DNA from: a bacterium
Lineage (GTDB): Bacteria > Patescibacteriota > Minisyncoccia > Phycocordibacterales > UBA2100
NCBI GenBank assembly: GCA_030648265.1
Contig: JAUSHX010000013.1
Span: 3,030-67,029, forward strand
Direction of reading: 5' to 3'
DNA: 64,000 bases
Shown: one piece after another, positions 11,561 to 61,488 of the stretch
Layout of the letters: each line of letters starts with the position of its first letter
Numbering within the stretch: position 1 is the stretch's first letter
Notes under the pieces: generated by a model
Databases searched by the model: none
What the model saw: the letters and a program-made list of their open reading frames with translations, nothing else
Told to the model about the DNA's origin: nothing
Translations under genes and position numbers: made by a program

Positions 11561-11568
11561 CCCCGTTT

Positions 11569-28107: not shown

Positions 28108-28247
28108 CCGTTCTGCGCACGGTTGCGCAAAAAGTGATCCATAATGACGAGTGAGGACATCGCATCTACTATCGGGACGGCGCGCGGGAGGACGCATGGG
28201 TCGTGGCGGCCCGAGGCTTCGAGTTTTGCTACACCCGCCTTCTTCAT
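28105..28247 (-). pseudogene. Displaced paralogous copy of the aroC 3' end (intact 47-codon frame [47 protein letters not shown])
   Basis: About 85% nucleotide identity to the aroC 3' end at 28775-28930, which encodes ...[40 protein letters not shown]. Confidence 0.65.
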
Positions 28248-28290: not shown

Positions 28291-28327
28291 TCTTATTCCA
28301 GTCTTTTGCAAAACACTGGAATAGACA
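28291..28327. repeat. Family-3 palindrome (CCAGTCTTTTGCAAAACACTGG)
   Basis: Third copy of the TTTTGCAAAA-centred palindrome. Confidence 0.6.
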
Positions 28328-28361
28328 TGACGTCAGATATTTCTCTCGTTACTGTCTATTT

Positions 28362-28397
28362 CCTTATATGCTTATTCGCGCGAATAAGCATATAAGG
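28362..28397. promoter_or_regulatory. Perfect 36-bp palindrome CCTTATATGCTTATTCGCGCGAATAAGCATATAAGG (downstream flank of hicB-like gene)
   Basis: Identical copy at 28726-28761 on the other side of the gene. Contains TATAAG. Confidence 0.8.
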
Positions 28398-28405
28398 AAT
28401 AATGC

Positions 28406-28678
28406 TCATGTGAGAACCGGCATTTTACTAGCGCGAGCAGTGAAGCGAAGATTCCCTTCCTTAACGGCCTCCGAAATAATGCGAGCTTCAATTGCTCCTT
28501 CAATACACTCGACAATCATTTCTTTCGCGTGCGATAAATTCTTGCCCCACGAGACGGTTCCCTGCACTTTTGGCGCAGTTGCAACATATCCGCCCATATC
28601 AACTTCCGGCTCAAAAACAGCCTTAAATGAGCCGTATTTCGTTTTTACAATAGCTGTTTTTATAGAGCTCTTTTTCAT
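28406..28678 (-). CDS. HicB-like (UPF0150/DUF1902 RNase-H-fold) antitoxin-family protein; no HicA partner present
   Basis: YGSFKAVFEPEVDMGGYVATAPKVQGTVSWGKNLSHAKEMIVECIEGAIE. TATAGT lies 9 nt upstream of the ATG. Confidence 0.55.
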   Translation of the reverse strand: MKKSSIKTAIVKTKYGSFKAVFEPEVDMGGYVATAPKVQGTVSWGKNLSHAKEMIVECIEGAIEARIISEAVKEGNLRFTARASKMPVLT

Positions 28679-28725
28679 GCTTGTAACTATACAATGCCAT
28701 GTTGGATTTCGCCACTACGTTTATT

Positions 28726-28761
28726 CCTTATATGCTTATTCGCGCGAATAAGCATATAAGG
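28726..28761. promoter_or_regulatory. Perfect 36-bp palindrome, second copy (upstream flank of hicB-like gene)
   Basis: Identical to 28362-28397. Confidence 0.8.
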
Positions 28762-28773
28762 AGTTATAACATT

Positions 28774-29859
28774 TCACGAGTTTTGCGCCTTGTTGCGCAG
28801 ATAGTGATCCATGATGACCAGCGCGGACATCGCGTCCACTATCGGAATCGCTCGCGGAAGGACGCACGGGTCGTGGCGGCCGGAGGCTTCTAGCTTGGTT
28901 GCCTCGCCTCCTTTTTTCACCGTGTCTTGCTCTTTCTTGATGGTTGAAACCGGCTTGAATACAACGCGGAAGTGAATTGTTTCCCCGCTTGAAATCCCGC
29001 CAATCGTACCGCCCGCGTTGTTCGTCTTTGTGTGTATTGTGCCATCCTTATCGGTGTAGAACGGGTCATTGTGTTCGCTCCCGCGCATGCCGACGCTCCG
29101 GAAGCCGAGCCCAATATCAAATCCCTTGACCGCATTGATTGAAAGCATCGCTTTCCCAAGGTCTGCATTGAGTTTATCAAACACCGGCTCGCCCAAACCA
29201 ACCGGGACATTCCGTATGACGCCTCTCACGACCCCGCCCACAGAATCGCCCTCAGATTTCACCTTTTCAACAAGCGCAATCATTTTTTCTGCCGATTTCT
29301 GGTCTGGGCAGCGGATGATATTTGATTCCACATCTTTCGCCGTGACCGTATTAAAATCCACGTCCGCGTGTATATCGCCGACTTGGTCCACGTAGCTGAT
29401 GATTTCTATGCCCAGCTTCTCTTTAAGGTATTTCTGCGCAATCGCACCCGCGGCGACGCGCGCAAGCGTCTCTCGCGCGGAAGCGCGCCCGGACCCCCTC
29501 CAGTCGCGGGCACCGTACTTCGCCTCGTAGGTGAAATCGGCATGCGACGGGCGGTACAAATCTTTGAGAGCCAGATAATCTTCGGGTTTTGTGTCTTCAT
29601 TGAGCACCATCATGAGAACCGGCGTACCCGTGGTCTTTCCCTCAAAGTAGCCGGAAAGAATATGAATTTTGTCCGCCTCTTTTCGGGGAGTCGTTATTTT
29701 ACTTTGCCCCGGGCGCCGCCTATCAAGCGCCACTTGAATTTCCTCCTCCGTTATCTCAATCCCCGGAGGGCACCCATCAACTACAACACCAACAGCCCCG
29801 CCATGCGATTCGCCGAATGTCGTTATCCGAAAGAGTTGTCCGAATGAATTTCCCGCCAT
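28774..29859 (-). CDS. aroC: Chorismate synthase
   Basis: [34 protein letters not shown]. Confidence 0.9.
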
Positions 29860-34959: not shown

Positions 34960-35103
34960 GTTAGGGATTCTTAGCGAGCGATAGCGAGATTAGAAGCTCT
35001 TACACCCTGTTAAATGCGATTCTTCGAGTCGCCCCGCCCTTGGCGGGATTTAACAGGGTTAAGAATATGTAATTCGCTTCGCTCATAACATTTTCTAAAC
35101 AAA
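34960..35103 (-). repeat. Family-1 element, copy 4, with alternative stem ACCCTGTTAAAT/ATTTAACAGGGT
   Basis: Conserved arms (…GAGATTAGAAGCTCTTAC / TTAAGAATATGTAATTCGCTTCGCTCATAAC), but both halves of the stem are replaced by a different complementary pair. Immediately upstream of trpE. Confidence 0.85.
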
Positions 35104-35152
35104 AACCGCCCTTACCGCACAAGTATACCTTGCGCAATAAGGGCGGTTTTCT
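35104..35152. terminator. Bidirectional terminator hairpin AAAACCGCCCTTACCGCACAAGTATACCTTGCGCAATAAGGGCGGTTTT
   Basis: Long GC stem flanked by A-run and T-run. Confidence 0.75.
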
Positions 35153-36306: not shown

Positions 36307-39126
36307 CTACTGAAACGCCTGCATCGTTGGGTCTGGGGTCCTCTCTGGCTCAGCATATCTTGCCCGGATGTCCGCCTCAATTTCTTCCCTATCCTTGCCA
36401 TATGTGAGATATGAAAGCTCTTTGAGCGCAGGAACCTTGCTGGAATCATGCTCCGCCGGCTTCACTGTTTGGATGGTAAACGGCCGTGCTGGCGTGCCGT
36501 TCACAAGGAGCGACATGACGGCATTGTAATTCGGGAGGTTTTCCAAGTCGGGTGCGGTGAAGCCCGGTTCAAATTGCTTTGCAAGAAACTCGGCATCCAT
36601 CGTGCCGACGCGGAACGCGGCTTTCGTGCCGACGTTGCCGATGACGGCGTCGCGGATTTTCTCATCCAACTGTGCGATGAACTGGTGCGCAATAACGAGC
36701 GAGAGTTTGTATTTCCGCGCCTCGGAAAGTATCGTGCCGATGGACGGCGTCGCAAAGTTTTGGAACTCGTCGATATAGAGATAGAAGACAGGCAAGTCGC
36801 CTCGCGAATCAATGCGGGAGAATGCAGCTTGGAGGAATTTGGAAACCAACACAAGACCAAGAAGCGAGGTGTTGCGTTCGCCCAACCGTCCCTTGGAAAG
36901 GTTCGCGAGAAAAATCTTCTTGTCGTCCATAATTTTGCGGAAGTCAAAAGCCGATTTCTCCTGCGCGACGATGGGGCGCATGATGTCGTTCGCGAGAAAG
37001 ACATCAAACTTGCTTGAAATGTACGGTGTTACATTTTCCAAAGAGGCGTCTCCGCCGGCGGCCTCCGCGATTTTTCGCCAGAACTGGATGATGACCGGAT
37101 TTTTGCATTTTGAAATCTTAAGGTCGCGGAATGACGCGTCTGCAAATACCCGCGGAACTTCAAGGAACGTGGAGCCGGAATCTGGATCCTCCACGACCAG
37201 TTGCACGGCGTTGCGGTAGTACTGCTCAAACATCGGGCCGAACGCCTCCGGCACATCGGCATAGAGCTTGCGGAAAATCCCGTATACTTCGTCCACCACA
37301 AATGTTTTCATTTCCGGCTTTGAACGGTCGTATTCCAGCATGTTGAGGCCCATCGGACGCGCCGTGTACGCCGGGTCAAAATATATAACGTCGTTCATCC
37401 GCTCCGGAGGAATTGCAGCCAAAATGTCCTCAATGTCGTTTCCATGCGGGTCTATGAATGCGACGCCCTCGCCGTTTTGTATATCCTGAATAATCATGTT
37501 TTTGATAAGAGTCGTCTTGCCTGTGCCTGTCTGCCCGATGACGTAGCAGTGCCGCATTCTGTCGGAAGCGCCAAAATGCACAGGCGTCTCCGTCGCGCCG
37601 TAACGATTGATTCCGAGCGTAATGCCTTCGGCCGCCATCGCGACAGGCGCAGGCATTTGTTTTGCGAACGCGCGCTTCAGTTCGCGCGATGTCGTTACGC
37701 GCTCGGCGGTGAAGTGGAACATAGTTGCTACCTCGGACAAAGCGAGTGGCATTATAATAGAGCGGTCAAACGTACGATATATGAAATCGCGCAGAAAATT
37801 TTCTATGCCCCAATTCCCGACCTCTTTAAACATGAGGTGGTTTCCCCTCGGGTCGTCATATTGATTAAAGGGCGCAATCAGGTTTTGCAATATCTCCTGC
37901 GCTCGTTTCTTGTCGGGCGCCGAAGCCACCAAGCGGATAAGGACGGGCGCGATGCGGCTTTTTATCTTGCGTCCGATAATCTCCGTCGCGACCTGGTCCG
38001 AAACGCGCCGGTAATCTTTCTCTTTGTCCTCCTTGTAAACCTGCGGCATAAAAATCGCCCTGCCAAATTCATGAACGATGTCTCCCAAAACAGTCTCGGG
38101 AACTTTGAGCGCGCGCCACAGAGGCCATCCTCGCTCTATTACGCGAATCATCTTCTTGTAATGCCTGTTGTATCTGTCGCCCTCGTTGCCGACTATGAAT
38201 TGGATAGCCGCACCTTCTCCGTGCTTCGCGAGCTTGGCAAATGCTGAAAGCAGAACGTTCAATGGGTCGTGCTCAAACATCTCGTATGTTTTAAGCGGTA
38301 AGGCAGGGTGGTCGGAAAGCCGAGCAATAGCCCCCGCACTTTCTCCCTGGTAATTGAAGATGTTGTAATCGCCTCGGCTCTCTGAAATACGCGCGTTCGG
38401 AAACACAGATGATATTAAGCGTTCCGCAAGAACCTTTTTCGCATTTGGAACTCCGAGATATAAAGAAACTTCCTCCGAACCATTGGGAACGGCAATTTCA
38501 AGCGAGAAACCTTCGTTGGGAGAGATGAGGGACGTGAGCCCGGCGTAGAGCTGCTCGGAGGACGAAAGTATTTGCTCCAGTTTCATCTGTGCCTGCTGTT
38601 CTTTATCTTTTCCGCTATGCGCCTGCGGCTGAATTTCAAAAAGAACCATATGGAGTGCGCGCTTCACTTTTTCCGCCGGTGCAAACCCTTTTTCAGGAAG
38701 ACCCTCGGCAATGTAACGAACGAGCATCCGGTGCAAATCGTCTTCCAAATGCGGATTTTTCATGCGCGCCGCGACAGAGAGAGCGTTGCGTATCCCGTGT
38801 TCCGCTACGATTTTCAAAAGGCCGTCCATCTGCGCATCGTGCTCTTCCGGTTCTAGGTTGAGCGCAAGCCGTATAGTGTCGTGTTCTGGTAAAACAACCG
38901 CCTCATGCAGAACAGCATGCGCGGGCTGTGCGCCATACGCGGCAATTTCGCGCTTGGCTATGCGGTCTTTCTCAACGCGGTTTTCTGCGGTTTCCAACTC
39001 TCCTGTCTTTTCTTTCACCTTCTCGCGCAAATAGGCGAGTTCCTCTTGTGGGGATTTGAATTTTTCCGCCGTCTTCGTTATACGCTCCGAAATAAAGCGC
39101 GGTTCCGCTGCAACTAATGCCACCAT
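36307..39126 (-). CDS. Type IV secretion coupling-protein-like ATPase (VirD4/TraG/TraD family, FtsK-HerA superfamily), 939 aa with a large N-terminal extension
   Basis: Walker A HCYVIGQTGTGKTT. The C-terminal segment YLYIDEFQNF...ARKYKLSLVIAHQFIAQLDEKIRDAVIGNVGTKAAFRVG is typical of the TraG-D_C domain. Confidence 0.65.
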   Translation of the reverse strand: MVALVAAEPRFISERITKTAEKFKSPQEELAYLREKVKEKTGELETAENRVEKDRIAKREIAAYGAQPAHAVLHEAVVLPEHDTIRLALNLEPEEHDAQMDGLLKIVAEHGIRNALSVAARMKNPHLEDDLHRMLVRYIAEGLPEKGFAPAEKVKRALHMVLFEIQPQAHSGKDKEQQAQMKLEQILSSSEQLYAGLTSLISPNEGFSLEIAVPNGSEEVSLYLGVPNAKKVLAERLISSVFPNARISESRGDYNIFNYQGESAGAIARLSDHPALPLKTYEMFEHDPLNVLLSAFAKLAKHGEGAAIQFIVGNEGDRYNRHYKKMIRVIERGWPLWRALKVPETVLGDIVHEFGRAIFMPQVYKEDKEKDYRRVSDQVATEIIGRKIKSRIAPVLIRLVASAPDKKRAQEILQNLIAPFNQYDDPRGNHLMFKEVGNWGIENFLRDFIYRTFDRSIIMPLALSEVATMFHFTAERVTTSRELKRAFAKQMPAPVAMAAEGITLGINRYGATETPVHFGASDRMRHCYVIGQTGTGKTTLIKNMIIQDIQNGEGVAFIDPHGNDIEDILAAIPPERMNDVIYFDPAYTARPMGLNMLEYDRSKPEMKTFVVDEVYGIFRKLYADVPEAFGPMFEQYYRNAVQLVVEDPDSGSTFLEVPRVFADASFRDLKISKCKNPVIIQFWRKIAEAAGGDASLENVTPYISSKFDVFLANDIMRPIVAQEKSAFDFRKIMDDKKIFLANLSKGRLGERNTSLLGLVLVSKFLQAAFSRIDSRGDLPVFYLYIDEFQNFATPSIGTILSEARKYKLSLVIAHQFIAQLDEKIRDAVIGNVGTKAAFRVGTMDAEFLAKQFEPGFTAPDLENLPNYNAVMSLLVNGTPARPFTIQTVKPAEHDSSKVPALKELSYLTYGKDREEIEADIRARYAEPERTPDPTMQAFQ

Positions 39127-39144: not shown

Positions 39145-40413
39145 CTATATCAACGCCTTCGCCCCGATGTCTCGGCGGAAGTATTTACCTTCAAAATGTA
39201 TCAGCTCAACGGCCTCATACGCGCGGTCAAGCGCGCCCTGAAGCGTGTCGCCCACGGCCGAGACTCCGAGTACGCGGCCTCCTGCCGTACTCAATGTCCC
39301 GCCTTGAGTTGAAGTGCCTGCGTGGAATACGACAACGCCTAGGATTTTCTCTGCTTCCTCAATTCCGGTTATGGGAAATCCTTTTTTGTACGTATCGGGA
39401 TACCCGCCGGAGGCAAGAACAATATTTACCGCAAAGCCGGAATTCCATTCAATATTCATGCCTGCAAGTTTTCCATCGGCGGAGGCTTCCAGAATATCCA
39501 ACAAATCTGTCTTCAACAGACGCATGTACACTTGGCATTCCGGGTCTCCAAAACGAGCGTTGAACTCCAGAACTTTAATGCCATTCGACGCCATTTTAAG
39601 CCCCGGGTACAAGATGCCGACGAACGGCGCCCCATGCTCCGCAAGCGCACGCAAGGTCGGGCGCACAATGCGAACTTCTATATCTTTCAGAGCCTCCATT
39701 GAAACGAACGGGACAGGTGCGATTGCCCCCATTCCGCCGGTGTTTTTTCCCGTTTCATTTTCGCCTACTTTTTTATGGTCCTGCGACGGCGGAAATAATA
39801 TGAAATCTTTGCCGTCCGCAAGCGCGTGAATGGAAATTTCCTGCCCATCCAGATATTCTTCTATGACGACTTCGTTGCCTGCCTCCTTGAACACGCGCTG
39901 TACCATGATTTCTTCAAGCGCGGACTCTGCTTCGGCGAGTGTCATACAAACGTAAACGCCCTTACCGAACGAAAGTCCGTTAGCTTTTACAACGATAGGA
40001 GCTCCGTGCTCGCGGATATAATTCAATGCGTCGTCGTGGTTGGAAAAAATCTCAAATTCGGCGGTGGGAACGCCTGCCTCCCTCATCAGGCGCTTCGCAA
40101 ATGCTTTTGACCCCTCAATGTGCGCCGCCGCTTTCACCGGACCCCACACGCGCAACCCGCGCAGCTTGAACAAATCTACGATGCCCTCTCCCAGCGGATT
40201 GTCAGGCCCGACGATTGTCAAAGCCACGTTTCTTTCCTTTGCGAACTTCACCAGATTCTCAAAATCCATTGCGTCTATCGGCACATTTTCACCTAAAGCC
40301 CCGGTGCCGCCGTTTCCCGGCGCAATGTAGAGTTTCCCGATGCGGGGCGATTGCGCGAGTTTCCACGCAAGCGCATTTTCCCTGCCTCCTGTGCCAACGA
40401 CCAAAACATCCAT
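39145..40413 (-). CDS. purD: Phosphoribosylamine-glycine ligase
   Basis: MDVLVVGTGGRENALAWKL and ATP-grasp motifs. Confidence 0.9.
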   Translation of the reverse strand: MDVLVVGTGGRENALAWKLAQSPRIGKLYIAPGNGGTGALGENVPIDAMDFENLVKFAKERNVALTIVGPDNPLGEGIVDLFKLRGLRVWGPVKAAAHIEGSKAFAKRLMREAGVPTAEFEIFSNHDDALNYIREHGAPIVVKANGLSFGKGVYVCMTLAEAESALEEIMVQRVFKEAGNEVVIEEYLDGQEISIHALADGKDFILFPPSQDHKKVGENETGKNTGGMGAIAPVPFVSMEALKDIEVRIVRPTLRALAEHGAPFVGILYPGLKMASNGIKVLEFNARFGDPECQVYMRLLKTDLLDILEASADGKLAGMNIEWNSGFAVNIVLASGGYPDTYKKGFPITGIEEAEKILGVVVFHAGTSTQGGTLSTAGGRVLGVSAVGDTLQGALDRAYEAVELIHFEGKYFRRDIGAKALI

Positions 40414-40459
40414 GGTTGGATTATATACGAGAATCCGAGAAAAGGTGTCGTATGTATAT

Positions 40460-40495
40460 GGTACAATCCATCAACACCTGTTGATGGATTGTACC
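40460..40495. promoter_or_regulatory. Perfect 36-bp palindrome GGTACAATCCATCAACACCTGTTGATGGATTGTACC abutting the ATG of the PaaX-like paralog 1
   Basis: Identical copy at 41101-41136 immediately after the same gene. Contains TACAAT. Confidence 0.8.
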
Positions 40496-41074
40496 ATGGC
40501 AAGAACATCCAATATGAAAACGACAGTGAATCAGAATCGGCGTGAGCGAACAGTGCAAATCCTCAAAATGGTTGCTGTCGGCGCACTTATCATTGGCATC
40601 GGTGCTGTACCATCTCCGCGGGCAGTTGGTAGGCTTCTTGCTGAACTAACACTTGGAGATAGCTCGAGAAATAGAAAATATGCGAGTCGGAAAATTAGAG
40701 AATTGAAAAAGCGCGGTTTCCTTGAGAAGCACGGCGTGCGGTATGCAGTCAGCGACAAAGGCCAACGAATACTCTCTCGCGAGCGCATTATGACCCTTGA
40801 GATACCAAGCTCCCGCAGGTGGAATGGGAGGTGGTATCTCATCATGTTTGACATTCCGCTCACGCAATCGTATGCACGGCAGGCACTCAATACGCTGTTA
40901 CTCGGCATGGGTCTGGTACAGTACCAGCAGTCGGTACTTATATATCCGTACCCCATCAAAGAAACGGTGCTGCACGTCTGCAGGTTTTACAAAGTCACTC
41001 GTTACGTATCTTTCGTTACGGCGGATAATGTCGACGGCGCGGACAAACTCAAAGGTCAGTTTGGCTTACCCTGA
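40496..41074 (+). CDS. Membrane-anchored wHTH + PaaX_C/Cas2-like domain protein, paralog 1 (likely start at MARTSN)
   Basis: N-terminal TM helix (MVAVGALIIGIGAV), a wHTH segment, then RWNGRWYLIMFDIPLTQSYARQALNTLLLGMGLVQYQQSVLIYPY. It is a paralog of 49699-50286 and 58780-59346. Confidence 0.55.
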   Translation: MARTSNMKTTVNQNRRERTVQILKMVAVGALIIGIGAVPSPRAVGRLLAELTLGDSSRNRKYASRKIRELKKRGFLEKHGVRYAVSDKGQRILSRERIMTLEIPSSRRWNGRWYLIMFDIPLTQSYARQALNTLLLGMGLVQYQQSVLIYPYPIKETVLHVCRFYKVTRYVSFVTADNVDGADKLKGQFGLP

Positions 41075-41100
41075 ACTTGCGCCGAGCTCACTCATGTAGC

Positions 41101-41136
41101 GGTACAATCCATCAACACCTGTTGATGGATTGTACC
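41101..41136. promoter_or_regulatory. Second copy of the paralog-1 palindrome
   Basis: Identical 36-mer. Confidence 0.8.
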
Positions 41137-41163
41137 GCCGTCTATGAGTCATGAGTATCCGAT

Positions 41164-41697
41164 CTATCGACCGTGACTATCAAGATGATGCATGGCCTCT
41201 TCGGGCGTACCGACAAAGTGCACTGAATTCATGATATCGTCCCTCAAAAATCCTTCGTCGTTCATTCGCTGTAACTGCTGTTTAAGCCCATCGTAGAAGT
41301 GGTCTGTATTGACGATGACTACCGGTTTATTCTGTTCTCCGTCCTTTTTCATTCGTACTATTTCCGTGAGTTCGTTGAGTGTACCTATCCCTCCAACAAG
41401 CACGATAATCACGTCGCCACGCTCAATGAGACCTAGGTTCATATCGCGACCATTTTTCACGACTATCATTTCGTCAGCATTTTTATACGCTTTATCCTTA
41501 ATTTTCTCCTGGATAACGCCGATTACTCTTGACCTGCCACGCTGTGCAGTGCGAGCAATAAGACCCATCAGGCCTTCGTCGGCTCCGCCCCAGACCAACG
41601 CATATTTGTGCTCAGCGATCAATCGTGCAAGCGTTTCCGCCGCCCCTTTATATTTTTCTGCGACATCATACTGCGAACAGAAAACGCAGATATTCAT
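41164..41697 (-). CDS. LOG-family (TIGR00730, cytokinin riboside 5-prime-monophosphate phosphoribohydrolase-like) protein
   Basis: ALVWGGADEGLMG and VLVGGIGTLNELTE. Confidence 0.75.
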   Translation of the reverse strand: MNICVFCSQYDVAEKYKGAAETLARLIAEHKYALVWGGADEGLMGLIARTAQRGRSRVIGVIQEKIKDKAYKNADEMIVVKNGRDMNLGLIERGDVIIVLVGGIGTLNELTEIVRMKKDGEQNKPVVIVNTDHFYDGLKQQLQRMNDEGFLRDDIMNSVHFVGTPEEAMHHLDSHGR

Positions 41698-41698
41698 A

Positions 41699-42469
41699 TC
41701 ATTCTTTAGTCAAAATCTCCGGACCGTCTTTGGTAATGATGACCGTGTGTTCAAAGTGCGCTGTGCGGGAGCCGTCTTTTGTGCGGTAGGAGTGGCCGTC
41801 TTTGTCAACATAGAGTTCGCCGGAGCCGAGCGCCATCATCGGTTCTATCGCAATAACAAGTCCTTCTTCAAGTTTCACTCCGCTCCCAGGGTGCCCGAAA
41901 TTGGGCACGTGCGGTTCTTCGTGTACTTTGAGCCCCACCCCGTGGCCCGAGAGATTTCGCGGAAATCCAAAGCCGTATTTTTTCGCGATGCGCTCAACGG
42001 CATAGCCGATATCCCCTGTAGTATTGCCGATTTTCGCCACCGCGATTCCAATTGTAAGAGCCTCTTGCGTTCCGTTCAACAAACGTTCGTCTTCCGGGTT
42101 CCGTTTTGTTCCCGCAATTACGGTAACCGCCGAATCGGTAAAAAATCCTTCATGCTTTATTCCAAAATCAAGGCATACGACATCGCCCTCTTCTATAGAA
42201 GTGTCATTCAATGCGGCAGGGCTGTGAACGATAACGTCGTTCACCGAAACGCACAGGCCGGATGGATACGGCTCTTCATTTTTTCCGCCTTTGTATCCGT
42301 AAAACGCCAGTTCATCGCCGTCTTTCGCGACCATTTCCCGGGCCATATCTTCCAGCTCGCGCGGAGTAATGCCAACTTTTACCATCCCCGACAAAATACG
42401 TAAATGCTTCGCGAGCCGTCTCCCTCCCTCGCGCAGTGCTGATATTTCCGTATCTCTTCTCGCGATCAT
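41699..42469 (-). CDS. map: Methionine aminopeptidase type I
   Basis: Metal-ligand motifs: VCLDFG, HGVGL, EPM. Confidence 0.9.
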   Translation of the reverse strand: MIARRDTEISALREGGRRLAKHLRILSGMVKVGITPRELEDMAREMVAKDGDELAFYGYKGGKNEEPYPSGLCVSVNDVIVHSPAALNDTSIEEGDVVCLDFGIKHEGFFTDSAVTVIAGTKRNPEDERLLNGTQEALTIGIAVAKIGNTTGDIGYAVERIAKKYGFGFPRNLSGHGVGLKVHEEPHVPNFGHPGSGVKLEEGLVIAIEPMMALGSGELYVDKDGHSYRTKDGSRTAHFEHTVIITKDGPEILTKE

Positions 42470-45563: not shown

Positions 45564-46199
45564 TTATTTTGAGACCGCTTTGAGTGCAGCCATTGCAGCG
45601 CGTGCATTGTTCAGCGGATTCTTGGAACGTGAGAGCAGTTTCGCCGTAACGTCGGAAATTCCCGCCAGTTCCAATACGGCTCGCACCGATGAACCGGCCA
45701 CAAGTCCGCGGCCGGGACTCGGCCTGATTTCCACGACCGATGCGCAGTACTTTGCTTCCACGTTACGCGGAATGCTTCTGGTTTTTGTGAGATTAATCGT
45801 GAGCATACTGCGCTTTGCCGCACGAGTCGCCTTTTCTATCGCCAACGCGGTGTCGGCGGCTTTCCCCAAGCCGACACCGACGCGCCCCTTCTTGTCCCCA
45901 AGAACGATGGCGACGCTGAAGTTAAAGCGCCGTCCGCCAGCCATAACGCGCGCGACGCGCCGAATGCCGATAAGTTTCTGGGCAAATTCGCTTCTGCGCT
46001 CATCGCGCTCCTTCCGTGGTCCTCGAGAAGGGCGGCCACGCATTCCTCCGCGGTCGCGGTCTCCCCCGCGGCGCGGAAAAGCCTTTTTCTCCGGCTCTTT
46101 CGTTTCAACGGGCACAACAGTTTCGTCAACTGGCAACAGGACTACTTCCGGTACAACAACCTCCTCCGCTTCGTCTATTATTTTTGGTTCAGCAGACAT
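45564..46199 (-). CDS. rpsE: 30S ribosomal protein S5 (with N-terminal extension)
   Basis: GRRFNFSVAIVLGDKKGRVGVGLGKA. Confidence 0.9.
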   Translation of the reverse strand: MSAEPKIIDEAEEVVVPEVVLLPVDETVVPVETKEPEKKAFPRRGGDRDRGGMRGRPSRGPRKERDERRSEFAQKLIGIRRVARVMAGGRRFNFSVAIVLGDKKGRVGVGLGKAADTALAIEKATRAAKRSMLTINLTKTRSIPRNVEAKYCASVVEIRPSPGRGLVAGSSVRAVLELAGISDVTAKLLSRSKNPLNNARAAMAALKAVSK

Positions 46200-46385
46200 A
46201 TCTTAGATTTAATTAGTGAGCGAAGCGAGCTTAGTAAATCTTAGACCCAGCACCACTTTTGAACTCCAGCAGTTCTTGCCGATGAGTTCTGGCTGTGATT
46301 GCTTTCGGTAGTTTTGCATAATTATCATAAGTTTCAAAAGTGGTGCTGGGTAAGTAAAATATAGTCGCTTTGCTCCTTATTTTAT
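46200..46385 (-). repeat. Family-1 element, copy 5 (stem ACCCAGCACCACTTTTGAA / TTCAAAAGTGGTGCTGGGT)
   Basis: Conserved arms. The loop is related to copy 15. Confidence 0.85.
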
Positions 46386-46724
46386 TTAGAATTGAAGTCC
46401 GGCGGTGCGCGCGGCATCAGCAAACGCTTTTATCGTTCCCTGGTACTGGAACCCGCCGCGGTCAAACACGACGGCCTTGATTCCTTTTTTGCCCGCGAGG
46501 GAGGCAAGAGTACCCGCGGCCGCTTCCGCGCGCTCTTTGGGAGTCTTTCCCTTCGCGTCATCGGACGATATGGCGGCGAGAGTCACCCCCTTCGCGTCAT
46601 CAATGAGCTGGGCGATAAGGCGCGTGTTTGATTTGTATACCGAGAGGCGCGGGCGCTGTTCCGTGCCGATGACCTTGGCGCGGACGCGGCGGTGCCTGCG
46701 TATTCTGTTATCTTGTTTTGTCAT
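46386..46724 (-). CDS. rplR: 50S ribosomal protein L18
   Basis: RLSVYKSNTRLIAQLIDD. Confidence 0.9.
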   Translation of the reverse strand: MTKQDNRIRRHRRVRAKVIGTEQRPRLSVYKSNTRLIAQLIDDAKGVTLAAISSDDAKGKTPKERAEAAAGTLASLAGKKGIKAVVFDRGGFQYQGTIKAFADAARTAGLQF

Positions 46725-47650: not shown

Positions 47651-48046
47651 TTACCATATCTCAAACAACGCCTCGCCTCCGACATTTTCTTTGCGCGCCT
47701 CTTTGCCCGTAAGAATTCCCTTGGGAGTTGAGAGGACTAGGGTGCCGTGGCCGTACCGCACCGGCATAATTTCGCTCACGCTCCGGTACATCCTCCGTCC
47801 CGGTTTTGAGATGCGCTTTACGCCGTGGATGACGTGGATTCCGTCGCTGTCATATTTGAGAACTACGTCCAGTGTCTTGCGGACCTTTTTCCCTTTCTTG
47901 TCTATTGATGCGACAAATCCGGCATCTTTCAACTTTTCGGCGACCGCCAGCTTGAGTGAAGAAAACGGCACGGAGACCGATTCCTTTTTCACGGCCCCCG
48001 CATTCTTGAGGCGGATTATGAAATCACCAATCGTATCGTTTACCAT
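47651..48046 (-). CDS. rpsH: 30S ribosomal protein S8
   Basis: DTIGDFIIRLKNA. Confidence 0.9.
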   Translation of the reverse strand: MVNDTIGDFIIRLKNAGAVKKESVSVPFSSLKLAVAEKLKDAGFVASIDKKGKKVRKTLDVVLKYDSDGIHVIHGVKRISKPGRRMYRSVSEIMPVRYGHGTLVLSTPKGILTGKEARKENVGGEALFEIW

Positions 48047-48167
48047 GTTAGTTTTTCTTGCGAGCGTAAGCGAGTTAGAAACAACTTACACCCAGCACCT
48101 TTGTTTCATTGAGAAACGAAGGTGCTGGGTAAAGAAATAGTAATTCATTTTATTCATAACGATTTCT
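48047..48167 (-). repeat. Family-1 element, copy 8
   Basis: ACCCAGCACCTTTGTTTCATTGAGAAACGAAGGTGCTGGGT core. Confidence 0.9.
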
Positions 48168-48353
48168 TTACCAAGAGGACTTCTTAATTCCCGGAATGTT
48201 TCCTTCAAGCGCCTCCTCGCGGAAGCAAATACGGCAAAGATTGAAATCACGCAGGAAACCGCGCGGGCGCCCGCATTTGAAACAGCGCCGGATTACCCGG
48301 CTCTTGAACTTGGGCGGTCTTTGCGCCTTTACAACCATTGACCTCTTTGCCAT
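48168..48353 (-). CDS. rpsN: 30S ribosomal protein S14 type Z (61 aa, zinc-binding)
   Basis: [23 protein letters not shown]. Confidence 0.9.
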
Positions 48354-48395
48354 ATCAGATTTTGTTACGAGCGAAGCGAGTTAGAAAATCTTATA

Positions 48396-48688
48396 CCCAG
48401 CACCTTGTTTGTTTACGACAGACTGTTTTTAAGGCGATTCTTTACATAAGTGCGAGCGTTGCCATATTGCTTGAGTTGCAATTCGCGCCTTACCGCGTCT
48501 TGCTTCGCTTTATAGCTCTCGACATAGACATACTCCCATGGTCGACCGCGACTCGTTGCCGTGACTTGTCCGCTGTTGTGCGAAGCAAGACGCTCATCAA
48601 GATTCTCGGTTCTGCCAAAGTAAAGAACGCCTTTTTCAACACTGCGGATTACGTACACATGGTACATAAACAAACAAGGTGCTGGGTT
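48396..48688 (-). mobile_element. Candidate GIY-YIG mini-element: 21-bp perfect terminal inverted repeats enclosing a single nuclease ORF
   Basis: The TIRs are identical over 21 bp. The ORF start lies 10 nt inside one TIR and the stop overlaps the other. Copies 2, 8 and 17 look like internal-deletion derivatives (ACCCAGCACCTTTGTTTC...GAAACGAAGGTGCTGGGT). Confidence 0.6.
48413..48667 (-). CDS. GIY-YIG nuclease family protein (UPF0213/YhbQ-like), 84 aa
   Basis: MYHVYVIRS..GVLYFGRTENLDERLASHNSG...WEYVYVESY...A..RE.QLK. The ORF track starts 2 codons earlier at a TTG. Confidence 0.75.
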   Translation of the reverse strand: MYHVYVIRSVEKGVLYFGRTENLDERLASHNSGQVTATSRGRPWEYVYVESYKAKQDAVRRELQLKQYGNARTYVKNRLKNSLS

Positions 48689-48929
48689 ACGAAAATCATA
48701 GTCGCCTCGCTTCGCTACGGCTTCTTGATTTTCAGTAATACCCCGAAGGAGAAGCTAGAAACTCCTGCATCCTGCCTTGCGGCTGAAGATTACGGAAGCT
48801 TCTTCGCGTGACCCTGTTCTTCGTCCAACTTGTGGTTGAAAAACAAAGCCCCCAACGAGGCTCCGAAAATATACGCGAGATGCGGATGAAAGTCAAACTT
48901 CAAAAAGTCTGTTCTGAAACTAATTCGGA

Positions 48930-49529
48930 TCAAAACTTGTCTATATCGTCATTTGCTTCCCGACGCTCTTTTCTTCTTTTGAATATTTCTTCTTGAGAAA
49001 GTTTTCTACCGGGTACAAACCCCTCTCGCTTTTCCTGCTTTTGGCCTGTTTTAACTAGCATTTTCTTCCATGCGGCATCCAACGCGGGCCCAAGTTCATC
49101 AATAGGGAACCTGCGGAGAATCATCTCCCTTTCGATAGACCACGTATGCTCACCGTGCGTGGCGTAGTCAGACCCCCGTTCTCTGCGCACAGCGCTCTTT
49201 TGTTGATGAGAATCTTTTCCGAATGTGATTTTGCTGTTTATAGTACCTATGGTTTCCTCCTTTTCATTGGGATTGCGGAGGTAGTTAGTCATTCTTGATG
49301 AATAATCTACTATTTTTATCATTTCGTCATCAGAAATAGGGATTTTAAGTTCCTCTATTTCTTTTCTGAGGAAATCTTCAAAAATTGCATTGTCTACCAT
49401 TTCCTCTCCCGCGGTCTGTCCCGATTCTTTTGCTTTATCCGCCATGAGTCCTTCAAACTTCTCCGTACTCGCCTCGTGTTCTTTCTCTCGCTCGGTAGAA
49501 GCGTTTCTTTTGCCCATTTCTAGTGCCAT
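48930..49529 (-). CDS. Hypothetical hydrophilic protein (199 aa)
   Basis: ORF only; charged and low-complexity; no recognisable domain. Confidence 0.35.
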   Translation of the reverse strand: MALEMGKRNASTEREKEHEASTEKFEGLMADKAKESGQTAGEEMVDNAIFEDFLRKEIEELKIPISDDEMIKIVDYSSRMTNYLRNPNEKEETIGTINSKITFGKDSHQQKSAVRRERGSDYATHGEHTWSIEREMILRRFPIDELGPALDAAWKKMLVKTGQKQEKREGFVPGRKLSQEEIFKRRKERREANDDIDKF

Positions 49530-49657
49530 AATTTTATGCCTTATTTCCTAATTTCTTAATGCTACCCCCACCCTCCAGATACGCAAGCGGCAAAAGTGGA
49601 CATCAAAAGTCTCTCCGCCTGCTTTTTTTCTCTTCCCTTTCACCTTTCTGGGGATAA

Positions 49658-49703
49658 CCCATGTCCCTATCCAGTGGCTATAGCTATAATATAAGGACAT
49701 GGG
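49658..49703. promoter_or_regulatory. Hairpin CCCATGTCC-CTATCCAGTGGCTATAGCTATAATATAA-GGACATGGG overlapping the start of PaaX-like paralog 2
   Basis: Contains a perfect TATAAT 8 nt before the ATG. A near-identical copy lies at about 50311-50356 just after the gene. Confidence 0.75.
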
Positions 49704-50286
49704 AAGAATGGAGCTCGCGGCAAAAAAGCGCCGGAGGAAAGAGAACGTCCAACAGATAGTGCTGGGAGTAGTCGCGGTTGCGGGCATACTTGCAGTAACA
49801 ATGATTGCGCCCAATATTTTCCAAGCTATTCCGCGCCTGTTGGGCGATAAATATAAGTTTGGTTATCGAGCGCGTACCGCCGCCGGCCGCCTTGCGCAAA
49901 AGGGATACGTACGCTTCGTGGAACGAAACGGCAAGAAGTTTGTGGAGATAACAGAGAAAGGAAAACGCGCATACGCATTGGAAAAGGCAAGATTCACGGC
50001 ATACACAAACATCAACAAGCGCTGGGACAAACGCTGGCGAATTGTTGCTTTTGACATCCCAGAGACTCGGCGAGGAACACGCGAACGTGTGCGCAGACTG
50101 ATGCGCGAATTCGGGTTCCTTAAACTACAAGACAGCGTTTGGGTATTTCCCTACGACTGCGAGGAACTTATTACAATGATGAAGGCAGAACTGCGGATTG
50201 GTAAGGATATCCTGTACATAATCGCGGACACTATCGAGAACGACCAATGGGTGAGAAGACAGTTTAACCTTCTCAAAGAATCATAG
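49699..50286 (+). CDS. Membrane-anchored wHTH + PaaX_C/Cas2-like domain protein, paralog 2
   Basis: TM helix VLGVVAVAGILAV; wHTH AAGRLAQKGYVRFVERNGKKFVEITEKG; RWDKRWRIVAFDIPETRRGTRERVRRLMREFGFLKLQDSVWVFPYDCEEL. Confidence 0.6.
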   Translation: MGRMELAAKKRRRKENVQQIVLGVVAVAGILAVTMIAPNIFQAIPRLLGDKYKFGYRARTAAGRLAQKGYVRFVERNGKKFVEITEKGKRAYALEKARFTAYTNINKRWDKRWRIVAFDIPETRRGTRERVRRLMREFGFLKLQDSVWVFPYDCEELITMMKAELRIGKDILYIIADTIENDQWVRRQFNLLKES

Positions 50287-50310
50287 TGTCGTCCTATTTC
50301 TCTCGGTTTT

Positions 50311-50356
50311 CCATATCCCTATCCAGTGGCTATAGCTATAATATAAGGACATTGGG
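50311..50356. promoter_or_regulatory. Second copy of the paralog-2 hairpin
   Basis: CCATATCCCTATCCAGTGGCTATAGCTATAATATAAGGACATTGG. Confidence 0.75.
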
Positions 50357-50413
50357 CCATGCAAGATACACCTCCAAAGAGTGCGCGGGCGACGACAGTA
50401 TCTTTCTGTTTTT

Positions 50414-50959
50414 CTATTTCTTTGCTTCTGCTTCCTTCAGCGGCAATCCCAAGTACCTTAAGAATGCCTCCGCCTCTTTCTTATTTTTTGCCGTTGTGAC
50501 AACCGTCACCGCGAGTCCGAAGATATCCTTGCTGTCTTCATCGGATGTCTCGGGGAATACGATGTTCTCCTTGATGCCTATCGTGATGTTGCCCATTTCA
50601 TCTATGGTTTCAGGCCGAATGCCGCGGAAGTCTTTTGAGCGCGGGAGAACAATATGAATGAGTTTGTCCAAGAAGGTCTGCGCCCGCTTGTTGCGCAACG
50701 TGACTTGAAAGCCGACTTGGTCGCCCGCGCGGATTTTAAAGGTTGCAATGGATTTTTTGGCCATGCGCGCCGCCGGTGCCTGCCCCGTTATTCTCGTCAG
50801 GCGGTCTTTGATAACCTCGCGCTTTTTAGGGTCATGCTTTGCGCCGACTCCGGTTGAGACGACAATTTTAGAAACCTTCGGCGCCTGCATAACGCTCTTG
50901 TAGTGAAATTCCGTTTTGAGAGCTTCAAATGTTTTGTGCTGTGCTGTTTGTGTTTTCAT
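50414..50959 (-). CDS. rplE: 50S ribosomal protein L5
   Basis: PKVSKIVVSTGVG... Confidence 0.9.
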   Translation of the reverse strand: MKTQTAQHKTFEALKTEFHYKSVMQAPKVSKIVVSTGVGAKHDPKKREVIKDRLTRITGQAPAARMAKKSIATFKIRAGDQVGFQVTLRNKRAQTFLDKLIHIVLPRSKDFRGIRPETIDEMGNITIGIKENIVFPETSDEDSKDIFGLAVTVVTTAKNKKEAEAFLRYLGLPLKEAEAKK

Positions 50960-51090: not shown

Positions 51091-51399
51091 TTACTTGACT
51101 TCCTGCCCGCTTACAACCGCAACGCGGACGCGGACGCCCTCTTTTCGTTCAATGCGGATGCGGGTCGGCTTGCCTCCCTTCGGGTCCGCAAGCATCACGT
51201 TAGAAGCATGAATGGACATCGGCTTCTCTATAATTTGCCCTGTGCGGTTCTGCGCCGACGCCTTGCGGTGTTTTTTGACCATGTTCACGCCATCAATAGT
51301 GACGCGGTTCTTTTTAGGCAACACATGCGCAATCGTGCCCGAAGCGCCGCGATTCTTGCCCGCTATAACTATTATTTTATCTCCTTTCTTTAGTTTCAT
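51091..51399 (-). CDS. rplX: 50S ribosomal protein L24
   Basis: KKGDKIIVIAGKNRGASG (KOW motif). Confidence 0.9.
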   Translation of the reverse strand: MKLKKGDKIIVIAGKNRGASGTIAHVLPKKNRVTIDGVNMVKKHRKASAQNRTGQIIEKPMSIHASNVMLADPKGGKPTRIRIERKEGVRVRVAVVSGQEVK

Positions 51400-51573
51400 G
51401 TTAGAGATTATTAGCGAGTATTCCGAGCTTAGAAGCTCTTACACCCAGCACCTTTTACGCCAATGCTGTTGGTTGCAGGATAATACTGTCTAAGCGCGAT
51501 TTGGGCAAGAAAATTCATAGAGATTTAAAGGTGCTGGGTTTAGAAAAATATAGTCGCGTTGCTCCTTATTTTT
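51400..51573 (-). repeat. Family-1 element, copy 11 (78-nt loop identical to copy 12)
   Basis: The loop TTTTACGCCAATGCTGTTGGTTGCAGGATAATACTGTCTAAGCGCGATTTGGGCAAGAAAATTCATAGAGATTTAAA is repeated in 51946-52100. Confidence 0.85.
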
Positions 51574-51945
51574 CTAAACGACCTCAGGCGCCAATGTTAC
51601 GATTTTCTGATAGCCCCGCTCAATCACCTCGCGCGGGATGGGGCCAAAAACGCGATTTGCTTTCGGTTCCTTCTTTTCCTTCTCTACCAACACAACCGCA
51701 TTCTCGTCAAAACGAATGTATGAGCCGTCTTTTCGGCGGAAGGCCTTCTTTTGCCGGACGACCACGGCGCGGTAAATCTCTTTCTTCTTCACCGATTTGC
51801 GCGGCTGGGCGGTCTGAATTGAAATAACGACTTCGTCGCCAAGTTCTGCATAACGGCGCTTTGAACCGCCGAGAACTTTGAAAACACGTCCGATGATTCC
51901 TCCGGAGTTGTCAGCAATTTTTACGAGTGAACGCGGTTGGATCAT
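51574..51945 (-). CDS. rplN: 50S ribosomal protein L14
   Basis: MIQPRSLVKIADNSGG. Confidence 0.9.
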   Translation of the reverse strand: MIQPRSLVKIADNSGGIIGRVFKVLGGSKRRYAELGDEVVISIQTAQPRKSVKKKEIYRAVVVRQKKAFRRKDGSYIRFDENAVVLVEKEKKEPKANRVFGPIPREVIERGYQKIVTLAPEVV

Positions 51946-53473: not shown

Positions 53474-54148
53474 TCACTTCGTTCCTTTTTTATCGGAAAA
53501 TATTTCCCCCCTGTATATCCAGACTTTTACGCCCAAGACACCGTACGGCAGGTACGCAACTTCGCGCGCAAAATCAATGTCGGCGCGCAGAGTCTGCAGA
53601 GGCACGCGCCCTCGCTTGATTTCCTCCGTTCGCGACATTTCGGCGCCTCCCAAGCGGCCGGCAATGGCAATGCGAACCCCCTGCACGTCCCTGTTTGCCA
53701 TTACTTTCTCAACCGTTTGCTTCAAGACTCTCCGGAACGGCATGCGCTTCTCCAATCCTTCGGCCACCATGTAGGCGACAACCGGAGATTGCGACTCCGG
53801 CGAGCGGACTTCTTCAATATCCAGTTTCACCGTCCGCGGCTCCACGCCCTTTATCTTACGGATGAGTACCTCTATCTCTTTGGTGAGCTTAACGCTCCCC
53901 TCGCCGCCGCGGCCGATGACAAGTCCCGGACGGGATGTCTTCAGAAGGACGCGGACAATCTTCTCTCTCCGCTCTATTTCTACAGATGTAATATAGTTCC
54001 CGCGCAAACGTTTCTTGATAAAACGGCGGATTGAGGAGTCAATCATAACGTTCTCGCGGTATTGCGCCGGAGTCTTTGAGAACCAACGGGATTTCCAGTC
54101 ACGGATTATTCCCAGGCGGTGTGCGAACGGATGTACGGTGTGGGTCAT
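53474..54148 (-). CDS. rpsC: 30S ribosomal protein S3
   Basis: KH-domain motif GLVIGRGGEG and C-terminal domain. Confidence 0.9.
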   Translation of the reverse strand: MTHTVHPFAHRLGIIRDWKSRWFSKTPAQYRENVMIDSSIRRFIKKRLRGNYITSVEIERREKIVRVLLKTSRPGLVIGRGGEGSVKLTKEIEVLIRKIKGVEPRTVKLDIEEVRSPESQSPVVAYMVAEGLEKRMPFRRVLKQTVEKVMANRDVQGVRIAIAGRLGGAEMSRTEEIKRGRVPLQTLRADIDFAREVAYLPYGVLGVKVWIYRGEIFSDKKGTK

Positions 54149-54309
54149 GTTAGATTTTGTTATGAGCGAAGCGAGTTAGAAAATCTTACACCCAGCACCT
54201 TTTGCGATAATAATGCTTTGGGTCGCAGGATGATACTGTTTAGCGGCAATTTGAGCAATGAAGTTCACAGTGCTTAAAAGGTGCTGGGTCAAAATTGTGA
54301 TATTGGTAT
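54149..54309 (-). repeat. Family-1 element, copy 14 (loop related to copies 11 and 12)
   Basis: Loop TTTTGCGATAATAATGCTTTGGGTCGCAGGATGATACTGTTTAGCGGCAATTTGAGCAATGAAGTTCACAGTGCTTAAAA. Confidence 0.85.
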
Positions 54310-54675
54310 TCATGATTTTTTTGCCACAATTTTGGCTTTTGCAGGCTTTACCTTTGATTGTCCAAGCTCAATTTTGATAATGCTGTATGTTTTGCGCAAA
54401 GTACCGGAGCGGCCGCGGCCGAACGGGCGCGCTCGGCGCGCAACTGCCCCTTTGTCAACACTCACGTGCCTCACGAAGAGCCCCTCGGGAGAAATTCCGG
54501 AATTCCGCGAGTTCGCAACGGCCGACTCCAAAAGCTTGCTGAACGCCTCAGAAGATTTCTGCATCAAAAATGAGAGCGCCACGCGCGCCTGCGGAACCGT
54601 CTTCCCGCGTATCAAATCCGCGACAAGGCGAACCTTCCTCGGCGACTGATGATAGTTTGTGAGCAGTGCTTTCAT
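54310..54675 (-). CDS. rplV: 50S ribosomal protein L22
   Basis: QSPRKVRLVADLIRGK. Confidence 0.9.
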   Translation of the reverse strand: MKALLTNYHQSPRKVRLVADLIRGKTVPQARVALSFLMQKSSEAFSKLLESAVANSRNSGISPEGLFVRHVSVDKGAVARRARPFGRGRSGTLRKTYSIIKIELGQSKVKPAKAKIVAKKS

Positions 54676-56341: not shown

Positions 56342-56460
56342 GTTAGTTTTTCTTAACGAGTAATCGAGTTTAGAAACAACTTACACCCAGCACCTTTGTT
56401 TCATTGAGAAACGAAGGTGCTGGGTCATGAAACTGTAATTCGCTTTGCTCATAATAATTT
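56342..56460 (-). repeat. Family-1 element, copy 17
   Basis: ACCCAGCACCTTTGTTTCATTGAGAAACGAAGGTGCTGGGT core. Confidence 0.9.
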
Positions 56461-58500: not shown

Positions 58501-58707
58501 TCCCTACGAAAAAATCGCGCAACGGCAAATCGCTTGCGCGAGATACCATTGGTCCCTCCCCAATTACGGGGCGTGCCCCAGAATTGGGGAGGGACGTAGC
58601 GTTGGGGAAGTATACATACAGGCTCCCAAAATGCAAATATATGCTACCCGAGTTCAATGTAGAAGTGCACAGCCAAGTACACTCATGTTTTGTCGTGAGT
58701 AAACACT

Positions 58708-58741
58708 GTACCGATTCTGCGCGACCGCGTATAATCGGTAC
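58708..58741. promoter_or_regulatory. Palindrome GTACCGATTCTGCGCGACCGCGTATAATCGGTAC at the 3' side of PaaX-like paralog 3 (contains TATAAT and GATTC/AATC half-sites)
   Basis: Near-copy of 59347-59380. Lies about 400 bp upstream of rplC. Confidence 0.7.
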
Positions 58742-58779
58742 GGGACGTCTCTTCCAATACATCCTCTCAAATATAATAA

Positions 58780-60846: not shown

Positions 60847-61488
<642 letters not shown>

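Follow-up and report, generated by a model that had tools for sequence, protein, structure and literature searches.

What is the use of placing the same palindrome at both ends of a gene? The question is raised by a stretch of 64,000 nucleotides from a bacterium of the Patescibacteriota (GenBank assembly GCA_030648265.1, contig JAUSHX010000013.1, positions 3,030 to 67,029; hereafter the window), in which three paralogous genes had been reported each to lie between two copies of a palindrome of their own. This original prediction had related the proteins to PaaX and Cas2 and had left three roles for the copy situated past the stop codon, as a terminator, as an operator of the neighbouring gene or as the end of a mobile cassette. 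The two-ended layout appears to recur over hundreds of related genes of Patescibacteria and to be undescribed: we found no description in the full-text literature of the layout, of the family itself or of its Cas2-like domain PF20803 in Patescibacteria. New here are the PaaX-like domain make-up of the proteins and the conserved layout of a putative operator at both ends of their genes. The reading that we favour, with somewhat more belief than doubt, is that each gene encodes a truncated PaaX-type repressor whose private palindrome would serve at both gene ends, as the operator of the promoter and as an auxiliary operator past the stop codon.

Three paralogs and their flanking sequences

The three open reading frames (ORFs) are present where they were predicted: paralog 1 at 40496-41074 (+ strand, 192 aa), paralog 2 at 49699-50286 (+ strand, 195 aa), antisense within a ribosomal-protein cluster in the rplE/rpsN interval, and paralog 3 at 58780-59346 (- strand, 188 aa). 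Aligned over their full length the proteins are 25-40% identical, and all three have a hydrophobic N-terminal stretch and the motif RW(D/N)..W.....FDIP......R..........G....Q.SV...PY. A hidden Markov model built from them detects no fourth family member in the window. Their neighbours are purD, a LOG-family gene, ribosomal-protein genes and glycosyltransferases; none is a paa catabolic gene, no cas1 is found among the annotated neighbours, and the 20 largest of the 51 repeat families of the window contain no CRISPR-like array.

The expected succession of a hydrophobic helix, a winged helix-turn-helix (wHTH) and a Cas2-like PaaX domain stands, but this last domain is not PaaX_C as proposed. It is the central domain PaaX_M (PF20803, “PaaX protein central Cas2-like domain”), detected in all three proteins (58.5, 68.7 and 70.3 bits for a cutoff of 24; E-values from 7e-16 to 1.5e-19). 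The PaaX_C effector domain gives no match, the proteins stopping about 15-20 residues past the Cas2-like domain. As regards homology of their wHTH to that of PaaX, PF07848 has no match in the three paralogs, and the NCBIfam profile of PaaX, TIGR02277, aligns in part (profile positions 34-153, covering the recognition helix, the wing and the Cas2-like domain) with E-values of 1e-4 to 3e-11, far under its equivalog cutoff. PF09827 (Cas2) scores under its gathering threshold, and several winged-helix families are likewise below threshold. TIGR01573 (cas2) gives 25.6 and 26.9 bits for paralogs 2 and 3 (cutoff 24.5) and 15.6 bits for paralog 1; because the first two scores just pass the cutoff, relatives are named “CRISPR-associated endonuclease Cas2” by PGAP and IMG. 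Membership of a defence system was considered and set aside, PADLOC yielding weak Cas2 matches only.

An AlphaFold model of paralog 2 (mean pLDDT 71.5, above 90 in the C-terminal domain) comprises a long low-confidence helix (residues 3-35), a wHTH (40-84), a linker helix (86-104) and a β-α-β-β-α-β ferredoxin-like domain (113-176). The comparison with PaaX and Cas2 structures that had been called for gives E. coli PaaX as the top match in the PDB (8a39, E = 5.6e-5 over 141 aligned columns; Foldseek), followed by Rv0674, Cas2 proteins and the PaaX-like protein 3l09. Cas2 chains are matched with probabilities of 0.9-1.0 and E-values of 0.03-0.3. A single-domain search against PDB sequences produced no useful PaaX alignment.

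The sequences that bracket the three genes, P1, P2 and P3, are each present in exactly two copies, and none occurs outside its own flanks in the 64 kb, as announced. The upstream copy of P1 (40460-40495) reads GGTACAATCCATCAACA-CC-TGTTGATGGATTGTACC; its last base directly precedes the ATG of paralog 1, and 46 bp separate it from the start codon of the divergent purD. The downstream copy (41101-41136) begins 26 nt past the stop codon, between convergent genes and without a T-tract. The two copies are identical at 36 of 36 bp and in the same orientation, with 17-bp arms around the CC centre, and the DNA beside each of them is unrelated. P3 is also palindromic in its upstream copy (59347-59380, GTAC-TGATTC-TACGCG-AC-CGCGTA-GAATCA-GTAC, a perfect 16+2+16 arrangement with TAGAAT 6 nt before the ATG). 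Its downstream copy (58709-58742) begins 37 nt past the stop codon, carries a TATAAT directed back into the gene and differs from the upstream one at four positions, of which two form a symmetric change of T·A to C·G and one creates the TATAAT. The half-sites of the E. coli PaaX box, TGATTC and GAATCA, are indeed found in P3, but they are spaced by 14 nt instead of 27. As for position, the downstream copy of P3 is not in the rplC promoter region, where it had been located; the conserved S10-operon promoter has its -35 element about 72 bp further downstream.

The designation as a palindrome fits P2 poorly: in the window its two copies, of about 46 bp each, mainly form a direct repeat, and only the upstream one has inverted ends, of 9 bp. 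This copy (49660-49706, + strand) has the outer half-sites CATGTCCCTA and TAAGGACATG, and a TATAAT that precedes the start codon by 8 nt; the ATG itself falls within the right half-site. The second (50311-50357, + strand) begins 24 nt past the stop codon and is a direct copy with 4-5 mismatches. In an 87%-identical ortholog of paralog 2 the downstream copy is a perfect palindrome of 44 bp. The upstream copies of P1, P2 and P3 all abut or overlap the ATG.

Pairing of the two copies across the family

The bracket was assayed on 83 loci, i.e. 80 fetched from species-representative genomes, all of Patescibacteria, and the three of the window. Positions -150 to +30 relative to the start codon were compared with positions -30 to +300 relative to the stop codon, and the best ungapped match was scored; control regions of the same loci score 9 in the median and 13.9 at the 99th percentile. 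The upstream and downstream regions match with a score of at least 14 in 74 of the 83 loci. When all regions are compared with all others, the cognate downstream region is the top partner of its own upstream region, among 83 candidates, at 59 loci. Only 3.8% of the non-cognate pairs reach 14, and these correspond to evident orthologous groups. For the window the scores are 36, 39 and 23 between cognate copies and 7-11 between those of different paralogs. Paralogs residing in one genome do not cross-match either; their sites are private. The proposal that each palindrome goes with its own protein therefore extends from the three genes to the family.

This family is large and uniform. Grouped at 50% identity, it comprises 5,726 clusters if matches up to E = 1e-3 are admitted and 2,724 if the limit is 1e-10; almost every member measures about 180-200 aa and is matched over its full length. 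The paired sequences are mostly palindromes of 30-48 bp, with outer arms specific to the locus and short palindromic cores at their centres (e.g. GCTATAGC, GCATATGC, GCGACCGC, GTACTATAGTAC, GCGATCGC and GCCATGGC). The upstream palindrome ends a median of 15 nt before the start codon (interquartile range, IQR, 6-29), the downstream one begins a median of 22 nt after the stop codon (IQR 10-35), and the median distance between the two centres is 647 bp. Relative to the upstream copy, the downstream copy is the better palindrome at 33 loci, an equal one at 13 and a worse one at 28. In clear cases the symmetry of the upstream copy breaks exactly at its TATAAT or TAGAAT. This is the case for L081 (locus and genome handles are given where needed), with CCATATCCCTATCTCATTGC-TATA-GCAATGAGATAGGGATATGG downstream and ...GC-TATA-GCTTATAATTGGGGATATGG upstream. 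The two copies are in direct orientation in some orthologous groups and inverted in others.

Among orthologs the outer half-sites are kept and the substitutions are parallel or symmetric. In the lineage of paralog 2 (orthologs 62-87% identical) the outer ten bases, CATRTCCYTA ... TARGGAYATG, are retained while the interior changes. For the ortholog of paralog 1 in L001, the same change is seen in the left arm of both copies, and the downstream copy is changed matchingly on both arms.

Conservation of the protein was profiled on 140 full-length representatives, each less than 50% identical to the others. The most conserved residues belong to the Cas2-like domain: W109, D110, R114, D119 (100%), R128, Q144, S146, W148 and P151 (100%). 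In the helix-turn-helix region L65 and G69 alone are conserved, and the region of the recognition helix is variable against a conserved remainder of the protein, which counts in favour of the repressor reading given below. By its profile coordinates D119 aligns to the start of the Cas2 profiles, a position that we take to be that of the metal-binding, catalytic aspartate of Cas2. The invariance of these Cas2-type residues hints at a catalytic or ligand-binding role.

Copies apart from the brackets were also encountered. A scan of metagenomes with the paralog-2 half-sites at a spacing of 22 nt returned 19 places, of which five adjoin family genes; several others are perfect palindromes without an adjoining family gene. 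Among these solo palindromes, those of L100 (644-685) and L102 (367-408) are clear homologs of the downstream copy of L081, from which they differ by symmetric changes. Some of the other solo matches may be due to chance, because a palindromic element needs only one arm to fit the pattern. L030 has one palindrome before glyA, another between glyA and the family gene, and a half copy past the gene. Such solo and extra copies could be further targets of a repressor or scars of deletion between two copies. Dispersal like that of REP elements was dismissed, no extra copy being found in the window and no third copy in the 3-kb flanks of the other loci.

Possible roles of the two copies

For the upstream copy, autorepression is the most economical reading. 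The protein would consist of an N-terminal hydrophobic, probably membrane, helix, the wHTH and the Cas2-like domain as dimerisation module, the ligand-binding PaaX_C being missing, and its dimer would bind the locus-specific palindrome of about 34-46 bp through the outer half-sites. As originally described, the upstream copies overlap the start codon and a -10-like hexamer, so that their occupancy is predicted to shut the gene off. The model for this is PaaX of E. coli, which represses its own promoter by steric hindrance and whose box is TGATTC-N27-GAATCA (review PMC9493321). The overall span of the family palindromes is that of this box.

The role of an auxiliary operator would fall to the downstream copy, which lies in the first non-coding DNA past the stop codon and is in many cases the more perfect palindrome. 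By a loop of about 650 bp, for example, or by cooperative binding, it could aid the occupancy of the weaker upstream site, constrained by the promoter. It may also be a roadblock for transcription entering from neighbouring genes. Together, gene and operators would make a self-contained and portable regulatory cassette with an expression independent of its location, which fits the occurrence of such genes antisense inside operons.

Several observations weigh against this reading of a repressor with two operators. A consensus scan finds -10-like hexamers at the upstream copies of the window but no full -35/-10 promoter. Asp119, Gln144 and Ser146 are 99-100% conserved in the 140 members, more than a dimerisation module needs. 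For the three proteins of the window no sites exist in the 64 kb beyond their own flanks, and many downstream copies are palindromic over their whole length, beyond what the recognition of half-sites demands. No helical phasing is seen in the distance between the copies, although at 650 bp its absence is uninformative. Lastly, the hydrophobic helix is strong (the best 19-residue Kyte-Doolittle score has a median of 2.0 and reaches 1.6 or more in 56 of 84 proteins) and basic on both flanks. The charge asymmetry goes one way in 35 loci and the other way in 38, with 11 ties, so that the topology is not fixed. In the subfamilies resembling the window the N-terminal flank is the more basic, which leans to an N-in/C-out topology and would put the wHTH outside the cell.

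This last point is the starting point of another explanation, in which the protein is a DNA receptor or nuclease anchored at the surface, N-in/C-out, and the palindromes are uptake or recognition tags on the DNA that carries the gene. Competent bacteria do have membrane-anchored proteins that bind or cleave DNA outside the cell, such as ComEA, NucA and EndA. But the asymmetry of charge is inconsistent over the family, the upstream copy consistently covers a -10 hexamer and the start codon as operators typically do, and recognising DNA that is already in the cell would presumably give no advantage for its spread. We regard this explanation as highly improbable.

Could the downstream copy be a terminator or a stabilising 3' RNA hairpin, its likeness to the upstream copy being incidental or due to gene conversion? 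Its place 3-49 nt past the stop codon and its often long, perfect stem would suit such a role. Yet a run of at least four T follows the downstream copy in only 10 of 74 loci and in none of the three of the window, unlike the clear terminators of the same DNA, which have T-tracts (8585-8640, a 23-bp stem followed by T8, and 35102-35150). Consensus scans find no terminator at the three copies, and no Rfam match exists anywhere in the window. Mismatches between arms are mostly transversions (47), and those compatible with G·U pairs are about as frequent in the sense (20) as in the antisense orientation (16). Since T-tracts are mostly lacking and no G·U bias is seen, the downstream copies do not look like ordinary terminators, nor like hairpins selected at the RNA level; a hairpin, moreover, would need no likeness to the upstream sequence, and such a likeness is found in 74 of the 83 loci. 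This alternative is very unlikely. Neither is the downstream copy, in general, the promoter or operator of the next gene, because it is present whichever way the neighbour points, beside convergent genes (34 of 37 loci) as well as beside co-directional ones (38 of 44).

Another alternative makes of the downstream copy mainly a second promoter-operator that faces inwards; the gene would be transcribed convergently from its two ends, the antisense transcription setting the level of a repressor that controls both promoters. It is backed by one group of the Nomurabacteria type, where the downstream sequence is an inverted copy of the upstream one in nine of the ten loci listed, with a conserved GCATATGC-TA[GA]AAT directed into the gene: in L048, L015, L019, L062, L054, L034, L078, L061 and L043, GCATATGC is followed by TAGAAT (TAAAAT in L043). 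The downstream copy of P3, with its inward TATAAT, goes in the same direction. Direct copies, or perfect palindromes that contain no -10 hexamer, are found in other groups (L081, the CGACCG group, paralog 2). At the loci with long palindromes an inward -10 hexamer (at least 5 of 6 bases) is present in 7 of 32 downstream copies, as often as in either arm of the upstream copy, the outward arm having it in 3 of 32; these frequencies do not discriminate. A general antisense -10 hexamer was therefore rejected, as it holds for one orthologous group and paralog 3 only. For some lineages the data suggest that a single repressor governs a sense promoter and an antisense promoter facing each other; as the explanation for the family this arrangement is unlikely.

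The possibility that the palindromes are the ends, or a duplicated target, of a mobile cassette, recognised and cut or nicked by the wHTH-Cas2-like protein as a site-specific nuclease, was confronted with genomes whose L5 protein is 86-88% identical to that of the window. The presence/absence polymorphism that was to be looked for is real. The relative L109 lacks the three cassettes: there map directly adjoins purD, rplE adjoins rpsN, and the S10 promoter comes straight after the gene that lies upstream of rplC. At the rplE-rpsN junction (48897-50437 in the window) a PaaX-like cassette is found in the window and in L081, a PemK toxin pair in L105 (4059-5770), a YafQ toxin pair in L106 (4055-5836) and L108, and nothing in L107 (4034-4338) and L109. 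An ortholog of paralog 1, 79% identical, lies in the same context in L001 and L108. Thus the cassettes behave as accessory modules that come and go in the manner of toxin-antitoxin pairs, and this variable presence, in a place that elsewhere holds such pairs, favours mobility. So do the invariant aspartate at the catalytic position of Cas2, the TIGR01573 scores just over the cutoff for paralogs 2 and 3, the exact direct duplication of P1 and the solo palindromes, taken as possible empty sites or deletion scars.

Alignment with L109 nevertheless puts the insertion boundaries outside the palindromes, by 46-90 bp over the three sites, and reveals no target duplication there. The inserted segment covers approximately 58650-59468 for paralog 3 (55-88 bp beyond each palindrome, no target duplication being visible), 40411-41711 for paralog 1 (with the LOG-family gene and 46 promoter-bearing bp before purD) and 48897-50437 for paralog 2 (with an ORF of 199 aa). 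With such boundaries the palindromes do not behave as the ends of a transposing unit, the role that had been envisaged, and transposon ends or a target duplication were discarded. An origin by target duplication is disfavoured also because duplication cannot yield the inverted copies seen in some groups. The paralogs are old (25-40% identity), no identical cassettes occur in multiple copies and orthologs keep their position across relatives. A phage origin was likewise abandoned: viral contigs contain no relatives, and PHROGs give a weak regulator match only. To our knowledge Cas2 alone has no strand-transfer activity. A mobile cassette delimited by its palindromes appears quite unlikely. A related idea, in which the invariant Cas2-type active-site aspartate makes the protein in addition a sequence-specific nuclease or nickase acting on its private palindromes, making of the unit a Cas2-based selfish cassette, mobile or addiction-like, we judge distinctly doubtful.

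Some further observations concern the insertion sites. Within the spc operon of Kaiserbacteria-like genomes, the rplE-rpsN junction is a hotspot where small accessory modules are lodged. The 199-aa protein of the window is not clearly related to the products of the genes of about 180-200 aa beside the hotspot modules of L105 and L106. In L108 an insertion made up of a pair containing HTH_3 and of two large genes separates rplB from rpsS. The 46 bp between the upstream copy of P1 and purD (40414-40459) carry a TATAAT 6 nt before the purD ATG. In L109 purD begins 4 bp after map without such a promoter; the inserted DNA, beside the P1 palindrome, therefore appears to give purD a new promoter.

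Other features of the window and known systems

A second, unrelated gene of the window has the bracketed layout. It encodes a HicB-like protein of 90 aa (28406-28678, - strand) and lies between two identical, perfect 40-bp palindromes (28360-28399 and 28725-28762; arms TTCCTTATATGCTTATTCGC and GCGAATAAGCATATAAGGAA). This unit is situated between the true 3' end of aroC (28780-28896) and a duplicate of that end (117 bp, 82% identical; 28110-28226), and looks like an insertion that carried or duplicated the end of its target gene. A third family of palindromes, with the core TATTCCAGTGTTTTGCAAAACACTGGAATA, is found at 8631-8672, 11566-11607 and 28294-28323. One copy is just upstream and one just downstream of a block of minus-strand genes (a 393-aa membrane protein, an AI-2E transporter and an 83-aa ORF), and a further copy adjoins the HicB-like cassette; the family may represent the operators of a regulator encoded outside the window.

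The spacers of the ribosomal-protein genes contain, between 23750 and 58480, at least 12 copies of an intergenic element (e.g. 46199-46388, 48044-48175, 51397-51576, 54141-54322 and 56339-56462). It is built of a hairpin, ACCCAGCACCTTT...AAAGGTGCTGGGT, between conserved segments, the last of which ends in ...AAAATCTAACATG at the next start codon. L109 has 4-20 bp between these genes and lacks the element, which looks like an invasion of the ribosomal-protein operons by units of the type of miniature inverted-repeat transposable elements (MITEs). The loop of one ACCCAGCACC hairpin (48390-48690) contains an ORF of 86 aa for a GIY-YIG nuclease (48413-48673, - strand; Pfam E = 3e-16), and in L106 (5562-5854) the corresponding hairpin has perfect inverted arms of 23 nt. 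This unit may be the autonomous form of the intergenic element; its segment of 374 bp is absent from L109.

The S10-operon promoter mentioned above (TTTGCA-N17-TATACT, 58637-58609, - strand) is conserved and followed by a structured leader (58505-58640, - strand). The leader comprises a long hairpin (58552-58595) with compensatory differences relative to L109, then a GC hairpin with a T-run, and looks like an attenuator upstream of rplC; it has no Rfam match. Runs with a period of 9 nt (60974-61230 and 63587-63770) are on the coding (-) strand of the ORFs 60847-61488 and 63367-63876 and correspond to collagen-like repeats of the Gly-X-Y type. A TraG/VirD4-like coupling-protein homolog of 939 aa (36307-39126) adjoins purD, and its position is kept in L109.

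Patescibacteria are thought to have few regulators. The label “CRISPR-associated Cas2” attached to the present family inflates CRISPR counts and hides a possibly major class of sequence-specific DNA-binding proteins. The pairs of a protein and its private operator would offer hundreds of natural examples for decoding the specificity of wHTH domains and might also furnish engineering with orthogonal repressor-operator parts. To bracket a repressor gene with two copies of its operator would be an unusual design for an autoregulated cassette independent of its context. The invariant Cas2-type residues raise in turn a possible link between Cas2-fold proteins and palindromic repeats; if the nuclease reading were true, the family would be a living example, outside CRISPR, of a Cas2-fold protein coupled to its cognate palindromic repeats.

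Among known systems the closest is PaaX of E. coli and Pseudomonas, the repressor responding to phenylacetyl-CoA (PDB 8a39, 3l09 and 3kfw). It has the same succession of a wHTH and a PF20803 domain and is the top fold match, its operator consists of inverted half-sites over about 40 bp, and it represses its own promoter. The proteins of the window differ from it by the lack of PaaX_C, by an additional N-terminal hydrophobic helix and by their size (about 190 against about 310 aa). No paa genes are nearby, a second copy of the operator is found past the stop codon, and many divergent paralogs coexist in a genome, each with private sites. With Cas2 of CRISPR and the VapD-like nucleases they share the ferredoxin-like fold, the FDIP and Q-S-V motifs and an aspartate at the metal-binding position of Cas2, but at 188-195 aa they have twice the length of Cas2 (about 90-110 aa) and carry a wHTH and a hydrophobic helix in addition.

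The layout itself recalls the repressors with auxiliary operators (lac O1/O2, gal OE/OI, deo, lambda OL-OR), in which the operator at the promoter is accompanied by a site of equal or greater strength hundreds of bp away. Here, in contrast, the second site is always just past the stop codon of the repressor's own gene, and the putative loop would enclose that gene. RAYT genes are also bracketed by palindromes specific to their subfamily, the REPs; the proteins of the window have no HUH/Y1 transposase domain, however, and their palindromes are not dispersed, with two of each in 64 kb. Finally, type II toxin-antitoxin modules are, like the present cassettes, small, accessory and apparently self-regulated units, with a palindromic operator at the promoter, many divergent copies per genome and a common hotspot between rplE and rpsN, but where they associate two partners each of our cassettes consists of a single gene.

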